Position numbers and translations under genes: made by a program
The notes under the pieces: generated by a model
Databases searched by the model: none
Told to the model about the DNA's origin: nothing
What the model saw: only the letters and a program-made list of their open reading frames with translations
Source of the DNA: a marine gamma proteobacterium HTCC2143
Lineage (GTDB): Bacteria > Pseudomonadota > Gammaproteobacteria > Pseudomonadales > Dasaniaceae
Assembly (NCBI GenBank): GCA_000169075.1
Contig: AAVT01000001.1
Span: 547,201 to 571,200 of the forward strand
Reading direction: 5' to 3'
DNA length: 24,000 nt
Part shown: positions 5,652 through 21,970 of the stretch, piece by piece
How positions within the stretch are numbered: position 1 is the first letter of the stretch
How the letters are laid out: every line of letters starts with the position of its first letter

Positions 5652-7037
5652 CTATATCGCCTCCAATGCCTCGACCAGCTTTCCGACACCAATTATTTCC
5701 ATCCCCGCGATACCGCCTTTTGGCACATTAGCAGAAGGGACAATAGCTCGCTTAAATCCGTGTTTCGCCGCTTCCTGAATACGCTCCTGCCCACTAGGTA
5801 CTGGCCTAATCTCTCCGGACAGACCAACTTCTCCAAATACTACTAAATCCTGCGGTAACGGCCGATCCCGAAAACTCGAGACAATTGCTAAAAGCAGTGC
5901 CAAATCGGCACTCGTCTCAAGTACTTTAACGCCGCCAACAACATTCACAAACACATCCTGGTCACCAACTTGCAACCCCCCGTGACGATGCAACACGGCC
6001 AGTAACATCGCTAGTCGATTTTGTTCCAAGCCCACGGCAACCCTGCGCGGATTACCGAGTTGGGAGTCATCCACCAAGGCTTGGATTTCTACTAATAGGG
6101 GTCTCGTGCCCTCCCATACAACCATGACAAGACTACCTGAAGCGGGTTCGGATGTGCGCGACAGGAATATGGCTGAGGGATTTTTGACTTCCTTCAAGCC
6201 CTGTTCGGTCATTGCAAATACCCCTAGCTCATTAACTGCACCGAATCGGTTTTTTTGTCCTCGCAACGTCCTAAAACGACTATCCTCCGATCCCTCCAAC
6301 AGAATTGAACAGTCAATCATATGCTCCAGCACTTTTGGTCCCGCCAGACTGCCATCTTTAGTCACATGCCCCACCAAAAACAACACGGTACCTGTTTGTT
6401 TTGCATACCGGGTTAAATACGCAGCGCATTCGCGAACTTGGGATACACTTCCGGGTGCAGAACTCACATCTTCCGTATGTGCCACTTGGATCGAATCAAC
6501 GACTAACACCTTCGGTTTCAACAATTCCGCCTGACTACAAATAGCCTCAACACTGGTTTCTGACAACATATTTAGCTTGTTGGTAGGTAGGCCCAAACGA
6601 CGTGCTCGCATAGCAACCTGTTGCAGGGATTCCTCTCCAGTAACATAGAGCGCCGGCATAGATTCAGCCAAATAACACATGGTTTGCAGCAGCAATGTAC
6701 TCTTTCCGGCCCCAGGATGACCGCCGATAAGAATCGCAGAGCCGTGAACCAAACCCCCTCCAAGAACGCGATCAAATTCACCAGCGCCACAAGGGATCCG
6801 CGGTAAGTCTTCCAAATTTATCTGATCGAGTGTCTGTGCTTTCTGATTATTGGCAGCGCCCGCATAACCTTGAAATCGAATTTCTTTCGCGGCTGCAGAC
6901 GATGACGGTAATTTAATTTCAGTCAATGTGTTCCAGGCGCCACAATCCTTGCATTGACCTTGCCAGTTCGAGTAATCCGAACCGCAATCATTGCAAACAT
7001 AAGCCATTTTTGGTTTTGCCATTGCTTTTCCAGCCAT
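5652..7037 (-). CDS. radA: DNA repair protein RadA/Sms
   Basis: The ORF has an N-terminal C4 zinc finger (CNDCG...CKDCG), a Walker A motif (GHPGAGKST), the RadA-specific KNRFG motif and a Lon-protease-like C-terminal domain. An alternative ATG at 7022 gives MAKPKMAYVC, the usual RadA N-terminus. Confidence 0.95.
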   Translation of the reverse strand: MAGKAMAKPKMAYVCNDCGSDYSNWQGQCKDCGAWNTLTEIKLPSSSAAAKEIRFQGYAGAANNQKAQTLDQINLEDLPRIPCGAGEFDRVLGGGLVHGSAILIGGHPGAGKSTLLLQTMCYLAESMPALYVTGEESLQQVAMRARRLGLPTNKLNMLSETSVEAICSQAELLKPKVLVVDSIQVAHTEDVSSAPGSVSQVRECAAYLTRYAKQTGTVLFLVGHVTKDGSLAGPKVLEHMIDCSILLEGSEDSRFRTLRGQKNRFGAVNELGVFAMTEQGLKEVKNPSAIFLSRTSEPASGSLVMVVWEGTRPLLVEIQALVDDSQLGNPRRVAVGLEQNRLAMLLAVLHRHGGLQVGDQDVFVNVVGGVKVLETSADLALLLAIVSSFRDRPLPQDLVVFGEVGLSGEIRPVPSGQERIQEAAKHGFKRAIVPSANVPKGGIAGMEIIGVGKLVEALEAI

Positions 7038-7084
7038 TCTCTTCAGGGACTAACAGCGAATTAAAAGACTGTATGGTAGCGAGT

Positions 7085-7104
7085 TACTGTATAAATTAAC
7101 AGTG
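7085..7104. promoter_or_regulatory. Candidate LexA (SOS) box TACTGTATAAATTAACAGTG
   Basis: CTGT (7087-7090), an all-A/T 8-nt spacer, then ACAG (7099-7102). It matches 16 of 20 positions of the E. coli-type consensus TACTGTATATATATACAGTA. It lies in the 174-bp divergent region, about 50 nt upstream of the radA start and about 110 nt upstream of the 7212 start. Confidence 0.6.
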
Positions 7105-7211
7105 TCTATTTTTGCACCTACCCCCCCATGCGCTGGTAAACTAATTGATATCTAATCAACAGCGCACGATCAAAGATACACCCAGCGCGCTCAACCCTAT
7201 ACAATCTAACT

Positions 7212-8366
7212 ATGTCATCATTGATTCCAGAGCGCCCTATAGTAATCTCTCCGTCATTGGCCAATACGATTGGCCTGGAAGAGTCCGTACTGCTGCATGT
7301 GCTCAATGATATATGCTCACTAACCAATGGTGACAGCAGGCAGGGCTATCTTTGGTTCAGCATTTCAAAGGCTGATTTAGAGCGTAATATGCCGTTCTGG
7401 GATGTCGGTGAACTGCAGCGAATTAGTAAAAGCCTGAAGGATAAGGGCGTTATATTGATCGAATCACCGCCACTGCAACAAGGCGAACGCCTGTCCTTTG
7501 CAATGAATGAGACGGTGAACAGCACTGAAGCTCTTGAACGTGCTTCATCAACGACTAGGACTAAAGAGCAGGCTGTTGGTCAACGCTCCTCCGGCGCAAA
7601 CCTGCTGGCGAAAAATTGGCATCCTCCGGACGATCTGTTGCAGTTACTGGAACTTAATCACAATATCTCCAGAGATTTTGCCCTGCAACAACGTGAAGAC
7701 TTTCTGATATATTGGCAAGACCGCCAACAGGTATCGCACTCATGGCCCAGTAAATTTCGGCAACACGTGCTAAAACAATGGCGCTTTCACCAGAGTCGAG
7801 TCGCCGAGGTAGAAACGAGACAGGTGCAGTCTAACGCGTTAAATAGTAGCTGGCATCCCAGTCAGGACGCTTTAGACATTTTACACCGGGCAGATGTTAA
7901 CCCCGACTTTATTACTGACGCCATTCCCGAATTTGTTTTGTATTGGCGCGAACGCGGCGAAGCTCACAGCACCTGGAATTCAAAATTTATCGCCCACATC
8001 CGTCGACAATGGGCTATCTACACCAAAACGATGGAGCTGGATTACGAACCTAGGGAAATAGCTGCAAACTGGCAACCAAGCGAAGATGTCTACGATATAT
8101 TAAGATTGGCAAATATCGATATTGCCTTCGCCCGGGGCCTTGTTGCAGAATTTGTTCTTTTTTGGCGCGACACTCAGCAAATTCAACGTTCATGGAATAC
8201 CAAATTCTTACAACATGCCAAGTACCAGTGGGCAACACGTCATCAAATGGGTCAACACTATGCGGGACAGCAAGTCACTGATCGATCAGCTCAGTCGGAG
8301 CGTAAAACAACCTTCGAGCACCTCACCGACCGAAGCTGGGCACAAAACCTCGTCGAGGGCAGCTGA
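7212..8366 (+). CDS. Replication-associated protein: winged-helix-like N-terminus plus three tandem DnaT-C-terminal-like repeats (lambda O / DnaT-like)
   Basis: The ORF is 384 aa. Residues ~20-95 resemble the wHTH of lambda O/DnaD-type initiators (ISKADLERNMPFWDVGELQRISKSLKDKGVILIE). Three ~55-aa repeats at aa 135-190, 213-267 and 286-340 share W-x-P-x-x-D ... F-(L/V)-(I/L)-(Y/F)-W ... S-W-(P/N)-(S/T)-K-F ... Q-W. This is the pattern I recall from the C-terminal domain of E. coli DnaT. No SD is visible upstream. Confidence 0.6.
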   Translation: MSSLIPERPIVISPSLANTIGLEESVLLHVLNDICSLTNGDSRQGYLWFSISKADLERNMPFWDVGELQRISKSLKDKGVILIESPPLQQGERLSFAMNETVNSTEALERASSTTRTKEQAVGQRSSGANLLAKNWHPPDDLLQLLELNHNISRDFALQQREDFLIYWQDRQQVSHSWPSKFRQHVLKQWRFHQSRVAEVETRQVQSNALNSSWHPSQDALDILHRADVNPDFITDAIPEFVLYWRERGEAHSTWNSKFIAHIRRQWAIYTKTMELDYEPREIAANWQPSEDVYDILRLANIDIAFARGLVAEFVLFWRDTQQIQRSWNTKFLQHAKYQWATRHQMGQHYAGQQVTDRSAQSERKTTFEHLTDRSWAQNLVEGS

Positions 8367-8367
8367 G

Positions 8368-8979
8368 ATGAAAACTCCAGATTACTACCGACAAAAAGCG
8401 GCCGACAGTATACCGACTGAAGATCACGTTACTGCGATCAACCAGATGTTTACCGAATTCCAATTGGCTTATCACAACCAATTCCACAAGGCCTTTTCCG
8501 ATGATCAAAAAATCATCATGGCAAAACAGCTGTGGGCGAAAACATTAAGCGACTTATCACCTGACCGCATCATTTCTGCCACTCGCCGCGCTATTAAGGA
8601 ATCAGAGTATCTACCCACTTTACACACCATCAGAAAATTCAGCGAGCCTGTGCTAGAAGAAATGGGATTGCCTGACGCCTACAATGCCTATCTAGAAGCT
8701 TGCCGTGCAGCCACGCCAAAAATCGAGCAGCGCTGGACCCATCCGGCCATTTATCTGGCTGGCAGCGCCTCGGACTGGTTTTTTCTGGCCAATAGTATTG
8801 AAACCAGAGCGTTTCCTGTGTTCAAACGCAACTATGCGATATTGTGTGAACGGGTTATGCGGGGTGAAAGCTTGGAGCTACCTATCCACAAGGCAATCCC
8901 GGAAACTATCAATCATTCGTTATCTAACGAAGAGCGTAAAGACCGTTTGCATGCTCTGCGACAGGAGCTGGATATTTGA
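8368..8979 (+). CDS. Phage lambda P-like replication protein (putative replicative-helicase loader)
   Basis: This 203-aa ORF starts at an ATG 1 nt after the upstream TGA, with GAGGG 9 nt upstream. By hand it aligns along most of its length with lambda P as I remember it: INQMF..F, QLW, YLPTL (lambda FLPSP), GLPDAY (lambda GLPNVS), MRGESLELP (lambda NRGEAIPEP). The track ORF from 8122 is a 5' extension overlapping the previous gene. Confidence 0.6.
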   Translation: MKTPDYYRQKAADSIPTEDHVTAINQMFTEFQLAYHNQFHKAFSDDQKIIMAKQLWAKTLSDLSPDRIISATRRAIKESEYLPTLHTIRKFSEPVLEEMGLPDAYNAYLEACRAATPKIEQRWTHPAIYLAGSASDWFFLANSIETRAFPVFKRNYAILCERVMRGESLELPIHKAIPETINHSLSNEERKDRLHALRQELDI

Positions 8980-9137
8980 ACCATCGTCGAGTCTGGCGCC
9001 CATATCTCCCAGCATAAACGGCAGTATCGCCGTCCATCACCAAAGCGCGTTATAAGCCACCGTCAGCAATGGATTTTATGTGGGGAACCGCTACAATAGC
9101 AGCCTGCCTATCTTACGTATTCACAAGTAGATCACCG

Positions 9138-9899
9138 ATGACAAAATCACAAACCGACTCCAACAGCACTCATTTCGGCTACAAGACTGTGGAAAAAGGT
9201 AACAAGGAAGAAATGGTTGCTGGCGTATTCCACTCCGTAGCGGCCAAATACGACCTGATGAATGATCTCATGTCTGCTGGCGTGCATCGTATTTGGAAAC
9301 GCTTCACAATAGAGCTTTCAGGCGTAAGGCCAGGGCACCATGTTCTGGATATCGCTGGAGGAACTGGTGATCTAGCCGCAAAGTTCAGTAAAATTGTGGG
9401 GCAACATGGCCGCGTGGTGCTCGCCGACATCAACGAGTCTATGCTGCGAGTGGGTCGAGACAAAATGACCGACAGCGGCATTGTCGGCAATATAGAATAC
9501 ACAATGGCAAATGCAGAGTGCCTACCCTTTCCTGACAATACTTTTGACTGCATCACCATCTCTTTCGGTTTGCGCAATGTTACCGACAAAGACGCCGCCT
9601 TGCGATCAATGAACCGCGTGCTAAAACCCGGCGGCCGTTTGTTGGTATTAGAATTTTCCAAGCCCGGTAATGCCTTATTAAGTAAGGCTTATGATACGTA
9701 TTCTTTCAAACTGTTGCCAAAGATAGGTAAGTTAATCACCAACGATGAAGACAGCTATCGCTATCTGGCTGAAAGTATTCGCATGCATCCTGATCAGGAC
9801 ACGTTAAAAGCAATGATGGAAGATGCTGGATTTGCGCGCTGTGAATACCACAATATGACCGGTGGTATCGTCGCCGTTCATAAAGGAATAAAACCTTGA
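9138..9899 (+). CDS. ubiE: Demethylmenaquinone/ubiquinone C-methyltransferase UbiE
   Basis: The protein shows near-continuous similarity to UbiE ([27 protein letters not shown] motif [24 protein letters not shown]). The ATG at 9138 gives the canonical length. The 9069 start adds a hydrophobic extension with no precedent. Confidence 0.95.
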
Positions 9900-20872: not shown

Positions 20873-21970
20873 TCAGGTTATCGTCAATTGGCTGTCAACA
20901 AAGCGCTTAATCGTATATTGGCCAATCTCATCCATCGAAGTAAATTCTAAACTGCACAAAACGCCATCATCGGCATCTTCTGTATTAATAACTCGCGCAT
21001 AAATATCAGTGGTGTCAGCGCCCAGTAACTGCAGCGAAACCTCAATTTTTATCTCGGAAAATGGTACTAAGTCTATCGGGCTGCGCATCAGCAACCCCGC
21101 ATATCCTAAATCAATCACTTCTCCGCGAAATTGGTCCGGCTGAACATGTTTGCCAAGCAAGCGACGAAAGTAACAGGGCATGTTGACATTCACCCGAGGG
21201 CTTTTTCGTATTTCCCGGCGTGGAACAGTGATCGCTCTCGGCCGAGTTGTACCCATCAGATCATACAGATTGACCGGCTCCCGCTTACCTTTGACATGCA
21301 CCTTGTTCGGCTCTCCGACCAAGACAAAAGCCTTCGCCGCGCGATAGGTATTTTCACTGATAAGAATCTGGCCACGGAGGCTTTGCGCTTCAATCCGCGA
21401 CGTCAAGTTAACCTCATCACCAATCACTGTATACTCTCTATGGTGCTCCGAACCGACGGACCCCGCAACGACCTCCCCGGTATTTATCCCAATTCCCATA
21501 AACATCTCAGGCAGACCCAGACCGATATTTTGCTGATTGAATTCAGACATAGCACGCTGCATCTCAACGGCGCAGGCAATTGCGCGCTCAACATCATCTG
21601 TGTCACTATTGGGCGCCCCGAACAACACCATAATAGAGTCACCCATCAATTTATCGATAGTGCCGCCATGCCGGACAATGACATTCGTCATTCGAGAAAA
21701 ATAGCGATTTAACAGTTCCATCACTGTCATCGCTGAAAAAGTTTCAGCAAGGGCCGTAAAGCCGCGAATATCCGACAACAAGATAGTTACGCGCCGAGAT
21801 TCTGGGATCGTGCTGTCAAATTCGTTATCGCTGAGTAGCGTTTCAATGGTGTCAAGCAAGTCAGATCTGGCGTTATCTCTCTCAAGCTCCGCAGGGATAT
21901 AAGCTTGCACTTCGTCACATATCTTACTCGCCAACACTCTTACATTATTGGTGTTTTTTACCATAACCAC
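20873..21970 (-). CDS. Class III adenylate/guanylate cyclase fused to a C-terminal PilZ-like domain
   Basis: The cyclase core spans aa ~59-239 with metal-binding Asp residues (SD67IRGFT, GD111SIMVLFG), substrate Lys107 and Thr181, and Asn188/Arg192 (VNLTSRIE). The C-terminal ~110 aa has R251-R-E-I-R-K-S-P-R259-V and D287-L-G-Y-A-G292, resembling the PilZ RxxxR and (D/N)xSxxG motifs with Ser replaced by Gly. The start is either the GTG at 21970 or the ATG at 21964. Confidence 0.8.
   Translation of the reverse strand: MVMVKNTNNVRVLASKICDEVQAYIPAELERDNARSDLLDTIETLLSDNEFDSTIPESRRVTILLSDIRGFTALAETFSAMTVMELLNRYFSRMTNVIVRHGGTIDKLMGDSIMVLFGAPNSDTDDVERAIACAVEMQRAMSEFNQQNIGLGLPEMFMGIGINTGEVVAGSVGSEHHREYTVIGDEVNLTSRIEAQSLRGQILISENTYRAAKAFVLVGEPNKVHVKGKREPVNLYDLMGTTRPRAITVPRREIRKSPRVNVNMPCYFRRLLGKHVQPDQFRGEVIDLGYAGLLMRSPIDLVPFSEIKIEVSLQLLGADTTDIYARVINTEDADDGVLCSLEFTSMDEIGQYTIKRFVDSQLTIT

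Follow-up and report, generated by a model that had tools for sequence, protein, structure and literature searches.

The closest described relatives of the system discussed here are dopC and dopE, a gene pair of Cellvibrionales and some Oceanospirillales. They were brought to light by Brézellec et al. (2017, Genome Biol Evol; PMC5509034), who sought genes shared by all Cellvibrionales and those Oceanospirillales devoid of dciA, dnaC, and dnaI, and missing from dciA-bearing relatives. One gene survived that filter, matched the lambda P profile, and became dopE. It was found to be resident (no prophage, four classes of cellular context, and a phylogeny tracking that of the host), and the companion located 5' of it joins a lambda O-like helix-turn-helix (HTH) to a DnaT C-terminal motif (PMC5509034). 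Neither iterons nor DnaA boxes were present in dopC, those genomes have their minimum of GC skew at another place, and the occurrence of dopCE correlated with the loss of dciA/dnaC; a lack of dciA and dnaC/dnaI is reported for the order Cellvibrionales (PMC5509034). The authors suggested that DopE is a third kind of helicase "matchmaker" and that DopC aids at oriC or in fork reactivation (PMC5509034), a proposal that later papers merely cite (PMC11087808, PMC12214026, PMC12661323). In this paper we focus on the dopC-dopE pair of the marine gammaproteobacterium HTCC2143, which we place in the Spongiibacteraceae (Cellvibrionales), within a 24-kb window, i.e., the whole stretch of DNA that was analyzed.

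A preliminary description of this window, made from the letters alone, had pointed to two open reading frames (ORFs) separated by a TGA at 8364-8366 and an ATG at 8368, and this is how they are found. ORF1 (dopC) runs from 7212 to 8366 on the plus strand and encodes 384 amino acids (aa), with its TGA at 8364-8366; ORF2 in its short form extends from the ATG at 8368-8370 to 8979 on the same strand and encodes 203 aa. The pair is the known, already described dopC-dopE, a naming that the preliminary description had also used, correctly crediting it to a phylogenomic study (PMC5509034). A PF06992 P-like protein follows a protein with an HTH and DnaT C-terminal-like parts, the context is resident and free of prophage, the host belongs to the same order, and dopC lacks iterons and DnaA boxes; there is no essential difference. 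ORF2 is 100% identical to GP2143_15041 of HTCC2143. Public annotation calls it "replication protein P," and ORF1 is listed at NCBI as "DnaT-like ssDNA-binding domain-containing protein"; NCBIfam holds no model for either DopC or DopE.

Our reading, to which we give a probability of roughly 0.6, is that dopCE is the cell's lambda O/P-derived module for loading the DnaB helicase, with DopC as the adaptor to single-stranded DNA (ssDNA). To the 2017 text we add a three-repeat rule for DopC, its TDRSW tail, an overlap of 71-134 nucleotides (nt) between the genes that contains an upstream dopE start, and rare loci with dopE only or with a two-repeat DopC. Besides the published dopCE genes, the O and P proteins of phage lambda and the DnaT and DnaC proteins of Escherichia coli serve as yardsticks.

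DopE, a Relative of the Helicase Loader Lambda P

ORF2 had been called lambda P-like, and both profile and fold searches bear this out. The Pfam family PF06992 (Phage_lambda_P) matches with 31.5 bits (cut-off 26; E 1.9e-7), pairing residues 23-170 with positions 2-160 of the 162 in the profile, and PHROG 109 ("P-like helicase loader") matches at 3e-17. The AlphaFold2 (AF2) model, built from 48 homologues, has a mean predicted local distance difference test (pLDDT) score of 82.7. When Foldseek compares it with the PDB, the best folds are lambda P chains from 9oa1, a complex with DnaB (probability 1.00, E 1e-4 to 1e-3), with 188-211 aligned columns at 15-16% identity; no other structure reaches a significant score. 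In line with this, hhalign finds DopE 16-204 colinear with lambda P 30-228 (E 1.2e-3).

The domains of DopE can be named after those of lambda P, for which the limits and the function of the C-terminal lasso have been described (PMC12661323). A first helical domain resembling lambda P domain II covers aa 18-99 of the short form (8419-8664, plus strand), as placed by the AF2 model, hhalign, and the Foldseek match to 9oa1 with the published limits, and a second one resembling domain III covers aa 104-164 (8677-8859, plus strand; AF2, hhalign, and Foldseek). After an extended or coil stretch (165-186), the AF2 model ends in a C-terminal helix at 187-201 (8926-8970, plus strand), which hhalign pairs with lambda P 210-228. 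DopE and lambda P (PDB 9oa1/9oa2) have in common their overall fold, the domain order II-III-IV, the extended segment followed by a C-terminal helix, and the Pfam and PHROG family. They differ in that identity is only 16-17% and that domain I of lambda P (the N-lasso, 1-29) is unmatched in DopE, which has an N-terminal helix of its own, carried by a linker of ~40 residues. Moreover, dopE resides on the chromosome and has no origin-containing O gene as its partner.

Among phages, the nearest relatives of DopE are the P-like loaders of the Pseudomonas phages PAJU2, Ab31, and PAE2 (~30% identity). In PAJU2, the loader gene comes after a bona fide Phage_rep_O gene. Foldseek also reports that one DopE helical domain (~18-99 or 104-164; window 8419-8859) resembles the N-terminal domain of the helicase loader/inhibitor G39P of SPP1 (1no1; probability 0.98, template modeling score 0.77, 68 residues), which hints at a module common to phage DnaB loaders.

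DopC, a Winged Helix Followed by Three DnaT-Like Domains

For ORF1, a winged-helix N-terminus and DnaT C-terminal-like repeats had been claimed, and both are recovered, the repeats by Pfam and AF2 and the winged helix by AF2 and Foldseek. Pfam places three PF17948 DnaT DNA-binding domains in DopC (219 bits, cut-off 25; E 4e-66), and the AF2 model has a mean pLDDT of 76. From its N-terminus onward, dopC (7212-8366, plus strand) encodes a winged-helix domain, three DnaT-like domains, and a conserved C-terminal tail. The N-terminal domain (aa 1-101; 7212-7514) is defined by AF2, Foldseek, PHROG, and tblastn, the winged helix itself being modeled at residues 14-101 with a pLDDT of ~88. A variable and disordered linker follows (~aa 102-132; 7515-7607), with a pLDDT below 50 at 104-126 and many indels in our alignment A2. 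The three repeats lie at aa 133-195 (7608-7796), 211-272 (7842-8027), and 283-345 (8058-8246), all on the plus strand; each is a hidden Markov model (HMM) domain that is modeled as a three-helix bundle (140-206, 218-278, and 291-350, respectively) and that aligns with E. coli DnaT (repeat 1 pairing with DnaT 90-150). A second disordered stretch (349-369 in the AF2 model) precedes the short C-terminal tail.

DopC shares with E. coli DnaT the three-helix bundle of the C-terminal domain (CTD; PF17948). In the alignment with DnaT, each DopC repeat retains the WxP motif (W95/P97) and the equivalents of Y127/W128, W140, and K143. Mutagenesis has shown that Y127, W128, and K143 are needed for ssDNA binding by E. 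coli DnaT (PMC4132743). The gene order is alike as well, since in E. coli the DnaT-domain gene also stands directly 5' of a phage-derived loader gene, at a gap of 2 nt. On the other hand, DopC carries three tandem CTDs in one chain, whereas DnaT has one CTD that oligomerizes; DopC has a winged helix instead of the DnaT N-terminal domain and linker, and its partner is a P-type loader rather than the AAA+ protein DnaC. As DnaT 1-88 (the N-terminal domain) has no aligned counterpart anywhere in DopC and a winged helix takes its place, DopC is not a DnaT orthologue, and the CTD alone is shared.

The winged helix points to phage and plasmid initiators. Its top PDB folds in Foldseek are the N-domains of RepA_N-type staphylococcal plasmid initiators (5kbj/4pt7/4pql; probability 0.97-0.98, E ~0.1), followed by MarR/HxlR winged helices, and among predicted viral structures its best matches (probability 1.0, E down to 6e-6) are phage proteins 200-330 aa long of the replication, initiator, and HTH kinds. 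In PHROG, the first 82 residues match "DnaD-like helicase loader" (1e-5) and "replication initiation protein" (5e-4), and tblastn pairs residues 1-142 with phage "replication initiation O-like" proteins at 30% identity. No Pfam family matches the N-domain at E <= 0.01, including PF04492 (Phage_rep_O), which does match lambda O and PAJU2 gp63. The earlier label "lambda O-like" therefore holds only in the sense of a phage-initiator winged helix. With lambda O and other phage initiators (Phage_rep_O, DnaD-like, and RepA_N), DopC has in common an initiator-type N-terminal winged helix and a gene located 5' of the loader gene; unlike lambda O, it has neither a PF04492 match nor the O C-terminal domain, and dopC lacks the origin iterons that the O gene carries.

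At its C-terminus, DopC bears the conserved tail FEHLTDRSWAQNLVEGS (8313-8363, plus strand), whose residues D373, S375, and W376 do not vary in alignment A2 and which shows codon periodicity in the dopC frame. The motif (L/I)x-D-(R/T)-(S/D)-W, reading (L)TDRSW here, follows the variable linker and is kept in all DopC clades; in Thalassolituus and Oleispira, DopC terminates at the W of the motif.

The domain combination also exists in phages. An initiator of Stenotrophomonas phage StM171 (L082:2986-3852, 288 aa) joins a DopC-like N-domain to one PF17948 DnaT domain, and the same protein is also present in the phages Suso, HXX_Dennis, and QH16. No P-like loader follows the StM171 initiator gene (the next gene is RusA), and such initiators may work with a host loader. 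The architecture of winged HTH and DnaT domain is thus of phage origin and need not post-date domestication.

Conservation of the Pair Across Genomes

We scanned one genome per species with dopE and found 308 loci that encode a DopE relative, 80 of which were fetched. The closest genomes are those of Oceanicoccus and other Spongiibacteraceae. Throughout this family the order PBP1A-radA(-)-dopC-dopE-ubiE-ubiJ-ubiB is kept in the fetched loci, including the synteny upstream of ubiE that the preliminary description had proposed to look for across related genera; the order radA-dopC-dopE extends to further Cellvibrionales, and the adjacency of dopC and dopE reaches Cellvibrio, Thalassolituus, and Oleispira. 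DopE identity declines with taxonomic distance, from Oceanicoccus over other Spongiibacteraceae to Cellvibrio and Thalassolituus. Where an upstream ORF could be called, dopC stands directly 5' of dopE (73/77 loci), and that ORF contains exactly three DnaT repeats in 70 of the 77 cases. For DopC, 2135 homologues were found; among all cluster representatives, 944 relatives reach E <= 1e-3 and 126 reach <= 1e-30, and those listed in the latter group are mostly colinear and 350-420 aa long.

In HTCC2143 itself, radA (5652-7037, minus strand) lies 5' of the pair and ubiE (9069-9899) lies 3' of it. The claimed position between these two genes, away from phage genes, stands: the remaining Pfam-assignable ORFs of the window are all housekeeping (pilMNOP, the class A penicillin-binding protein PBP1A, ubiE/ubiJ-like/ubiB, hisI/hisE, tatC, an RNB-family exoribonuclease, a class II aminoacyl-tRNA synthetase, a NUDIX protein, and a cyclase-PilZ protein). 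No ORF of the 24 kb matches an integrase, repressor, capsid or other structural gene, or lysis gene, the window contains no tRNA, and no att-like repeats occur near the pair; the same core flanks recur in other genera. Altogether, the housekeeping context, the conserved synteny, and an identity that follows taxonomy make the pair a resident gene module, in agreement with the earlier view of a chromosomally fixed lambda O/P-derived pair.

Both genes are under purifying selection. Codon-phase variability, calculated as the mean nucleotide entropy by phase over 39 unique loci, shows normal periodicity in each (position 3, 1.26-1.29; position 1, 0.53-0.59; position 2, 0.32-0.34).

A few loci call for comment. 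Between radA and dopE, L027 (5248-5874) and L044 (5325-5933) encode short DopC variants of ~205 aa that have two DnaT repeats only and no N-terminal winged helix, and that keep an HTD(T/K)SW tail. Another five loci (L009, L014, L015, L021, and L051) are labeled as Paraglaciecola psychrophila or as Verrucomicrobiaceae, Paracoccaceae, or Enterobacteriaceae metagenome-assembled genomes; the first four show a Spongiibacteraceae-type radA-dopCE-ubiE synteny and L051 has dopE alone, and their discordant labels are likely due to mis-binning or mislabeling.

The Overlap Between dopC and dopE

The two ORFs had been described as translationally coupled at the TGA and the ATG at 8368. This ATG and a GAGGG Shine-Dalgarno sequence 8 nt 5' of it are indeed present, but they are confined to HTCC2143 and its two closest relatives (L001 and L002), whereas the conserved start is the ATG at 8260. 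The annotated ATG of the 203-aa form (8368-8370, plus strand) is therefore lineage-specific, and its junction with dopC is probably not the ancestral or conserved dopE start.

The ATG at 8260 lies 36 codons 5' of that at 8368 in the dopE frame, with no stop between them. At the equivalent position of 62 related loci, this frame carries ATG in 61 and GTG in 1, and in 42 of them it precedes by exactly 22 codons the dopE "SPTEAG" that is read across the DopC "LTDRSWA." Starting here, dopE (8260-8979, plus strand) would encode 239 aa, and the last 107 nt of dopC (8260-8366, plus strand) would at the same time be the 5' end of dopE. The additional N-terminal peptide (MRDSKSLIDQLSRSVKQ; 8260-8310, plus strand) is predicted to form an amphipathic helix. 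Its pattern M-[RQK]-D-S-[KN]-x-L-[IL]-x-Q-[VLA]-x-Q-x-[LIV] recurs across clades, and its helical hydrophobic moment is 0.78 (shuffle p = 0.007; p = 0.004-0.067 in five other clades).

The phase entropies reveal which of the two frames is constrained. As controls, the dopC-only segment (position 3, 1.26; position 1, 0.53; position 2, 0.34) and the dopE-only segment (1.29, 0.59, and 0.32, respectively) each indicate their own frame. In the helix segment of the overlap, dopE position 3 (dopC position 1) is the most variable at 1.50, followed by dopE position 1 (dopC position 2) at 1.28 and dopE position 2 (dopC position 3) at 0.96, i.e., the dopE frame, and the start segment has the same phase order. 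In the tail segment, the dopC frame is found (dopC position 3, 0.85; position 1, 0.60; position 2, 0.34). Since the dopC wobble position is the least variable phase of the start-and-helix segment, this segment evolves as dopE coding sequence. The frame switch recurs separately in Oceanicoccus-like, Litorivivens-like, Cellvibrio-like, and Pseudohongiella-like groups; in Thalassolituus and Oleispira, both frames of the overlap are conserved and the phases are flat.

The start codon itself is preserved as well. The DopC residue encoded at this position is H, Y, N, or D, with a wobble base that is T throughout, the synonymous C not occurring at all, implying that the ATG is what is kept. Across the overlap, 62/62 loci have an open dopE frame versus 8/62 for the third frame, and the overlap measures 71-134 nt (median 95 nt) in the related loci. 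Unusual RNA structure was not detected in it (z = +0.84), which rules out such structure as the cause of its conservation. In the databases, the conserved Met is the start of only ~5 of 120 DopE proteins and the starts of the others are scattered and unrelated; gene callers mostly avoid the overlap.

Three observations speak against the long form. The ATG at 8260 has no clear Shine-Dalgarno sequence (17 of 39 loci have one), whereas that at 8368 has its GAGGG; the amino-acid identity of the helix segment in the dopE frame (0.40) exceeds that in the others (0.35 and 0.34) only slightly; and in a search with the long DopE, the PHROG lambda-P profile did not match the N-terminal helix, so homology of this helix to lambda P domain I is unsupported. 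Weighing both sides, the family-conserved ATG, the periodicity, and the open frame suggest that the 239-aa protein is probably the ancestral and the main dopE product here, next to which a shorter isoform from 8368 is possible in the HTCC2143 lineage. That the overlap is dual-coding, with an internal start conserved at 8260, strikes us as likely on these sequence data. The overlap is apparently undescribed, the text of the 2017 dopCE paper (PMC5509034) making no mention of it.

Neighboring Genes and Further Sequence Elements

An origin of replication inside dopC, as in lambda O, can be ruled out: there are no iterons in dopC (only weak DNA repeats derived from the protein repeats), and its DnaA boxes are at chance level (8 found versus 5.6 expected) and form no cluster.

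The radA-dopC intergenic region (7038-7211) contains a perfect LexA/SOS-type box, CTGT-N8-ACAG (tTACTGTATAAATTAACAGTg), at 7087-7102, which is the sole strict match in the window. It is invariant in 11 loci of the Oceanicoccus clade, which hold 11 of the 15 strict sites across 855 kb of loci, and it is missing from every dopCE locus outside this clade, including all 31 without a neighboring radA. LexA control as a general trait of dopCE is thereby excluded. The box is 32-90 nt away from the start codon of radA, against 100-200 nt for dopC, and its nearness to radA makes control of that gene more likely. On its dopC side lie a conserved CTGG and a TACAAT element.

Two neighboring genes deserve a short comment. 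The maximal ubiE ORF starts at 9069, but its Pfam match begins only at residue 45, a second ATG (MTKSQ...) is found at 9138, and a sigma-70-like site (9120-9147) would fall within the long form; the real ubiE start is therefore probably 9138. Further away, the ORF at 20873-21970 (minus strand) fuses a catalytic domain of the adenylate/guanylate cyclase type to a C-terminal PilZ domain, an uncommon pairing of cyclic-nucleotide synthesis with a c-di-GMP receptor domain.

Proposed Mechanism and Alternative Explanations

If dopCE is indeed the cell's DnaB-loading module, the division of labor could be as follows. DopE, as a loader of the lambda P fold, would sit with its two helical domains and its C-terminal "lasso" helix on the C-terminal tier of the host's hexameric DnaB, opening the ring and keeping it open until it is placed on ssDNA. 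DopC would be the adaptor that marks the loading site. We infer that its three covalently linked DnaT-like bundles wrap ssDNA as a ready-made, short DnaT-type filament, for which the E. coli DnaT filament with its 2 nt per interface serves as the comparison, while the winged helix and the TDRSW tail may contact DNA and partners such as DopE, DnaB, DnaA, or PriA. Both genes would be expressed as one unit, and a dopE start inside dopC (most likely the ATG at 8260) would mean that the N-terminal helix of DopE and the tail of DopC share 107 nt in two frames. The identity of the pair, its domain architecture, fold, and synteny, the purifying selection, and the overlap are shown by the data above; the binding of DnaB and of ssDNA is a prediction, and the pair may act at oriC, at stalled forks, or at both.

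Several observations temper this reading. The likeness of DopE to lambda P is weak at the sequence level (16-17% identity, hhalign probability 20%), and sequence-profile searches of the PDB with DopC, DopE, and the DopE family profile gave nothing relevant, lambda P being recovered by fold alone. The DnaT residues K133, F135, and R146, which also bind ssDNA, have no kept equivalents in DopC. Full-text literature searches returned no experimental work on any DopC or DopE, as the preliminary description had supposed in calling their function experimentally uncharacterized. Finally, four loci (L053, L060, L062, and L077) have dopE (48-49% identity) and no DnaT-repeat ORF within ~6 kb or the fetched locus, so DopC may not be obligatory. 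According to the published account dopE is never without dopC; these loci conflict with that, unless dopC is encoded elsewhere in those genomes. All four are metagenome-assembled, with dopE at ~6001 (L053), ~2196 (L060), ~911 (L062), and ~6001 (L077); the gene 5' of dopE encodes a GGDEF protein in L060 and a P450 in L077.

A more ambitious version of the loading model would have the pair perform self-contained, ssDNA-targeted loading. Here, DopC would be a covalent "DnaT trimer" mini-filament to which the DnaB-DopE complex is handed over via the overprinted tail and N-terminal helix, serving both oriC and restart without DciA, DnaC, DnaT, or PriB. We regard this version as tentative, with the odds clearly against its holding in full; the part with the best support is the dual-coding overlap with its internal start.

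A role limited to replication restart is the strongest competitor, albeit an unlikely one. DopC and DopE would then be the analogue of DnaT and DnaC that reloads DnaB at abandoned forks and D-loops after PriA, with another factor or none acting at oriC. The only well-characterized homologous element of DopC, the DnaT CTD, assembles into filaments on ssDNA of the lagging strand within the preprimosome, the genes are ordered like dnaT-dnaC, and dopC has no iterons or DnaA boxes; yet DopC lacks the N-terminal domain and the PriB-docking linker of DnaT. Likewise, the adjacent radA is a repair gene and the intergenic region it shares with dopC has a LexA-type box in the Oceanicoccus clade, but this box is limited to one sub-clade and lies closer to radA. 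In addition, dopE was defined by its mutual exclusion with the initiation loaders dciA/dnaC (PMC5509034), and roles in restart and initiation can coexist.

Quite improbable is a device for phage exclusion or competition, in which a domesticated P-like protein sequesters DnaB or out-competes phage loaders and is not the cell's own loader. Lambda P does out-compete DnaC for DnaB, and the authors of the 2017 study suggested that a domesticated loader could hamper some phages (PMC5509034). However, vertical inheritance in a fixed core context across orders, strong purifying selection, and a single copy are atypical of defense genes, and the idea leaves DnaB loading in these genomes unexplained. 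A decaying prophage remnant without cellular function, for which one might cite the phage relatives of both proteins (PAJU2-type P loaders at 30% identity and StM171-type initiators), is effectively refuted by the presence of the pair in 308 species-level genomes with conserved synteny and length, three repeats in 70/77 loci, the codon periodicity of constrained genes, and the absence of nearby phage genes, att-like repeats, and tRNA.

Implications for the Study of DopC and DopE

What remains of interest is the function of the pair, together with the three-repeat rule, the conserved tail, and the overlap with its upstream start. These three features should alter how both proteins are cloned and mutagenized. 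The annotated 203-aa DopE is probably truncated at its N-terminus, and a construct from the ATG at 8260 encodes 239 aa. Mutations in the 107-nt dual-coding overlap affect both proteins, and the tail of DopC and the N-terminal helix of DopE are candidate interaction elements.

From a broader perspective, DopCE is the only candidate helicase loader for an entire clade of gammaproteobacteria that live freely in the sea and in soil and have neither DciA nor DnaC. If the proposed role is true, it would provide a cellular loader of the lambda P type for comparison with the recent DnaB-lambda P structures, and every bacterium would be shown to need a dedicated DnaB loader.

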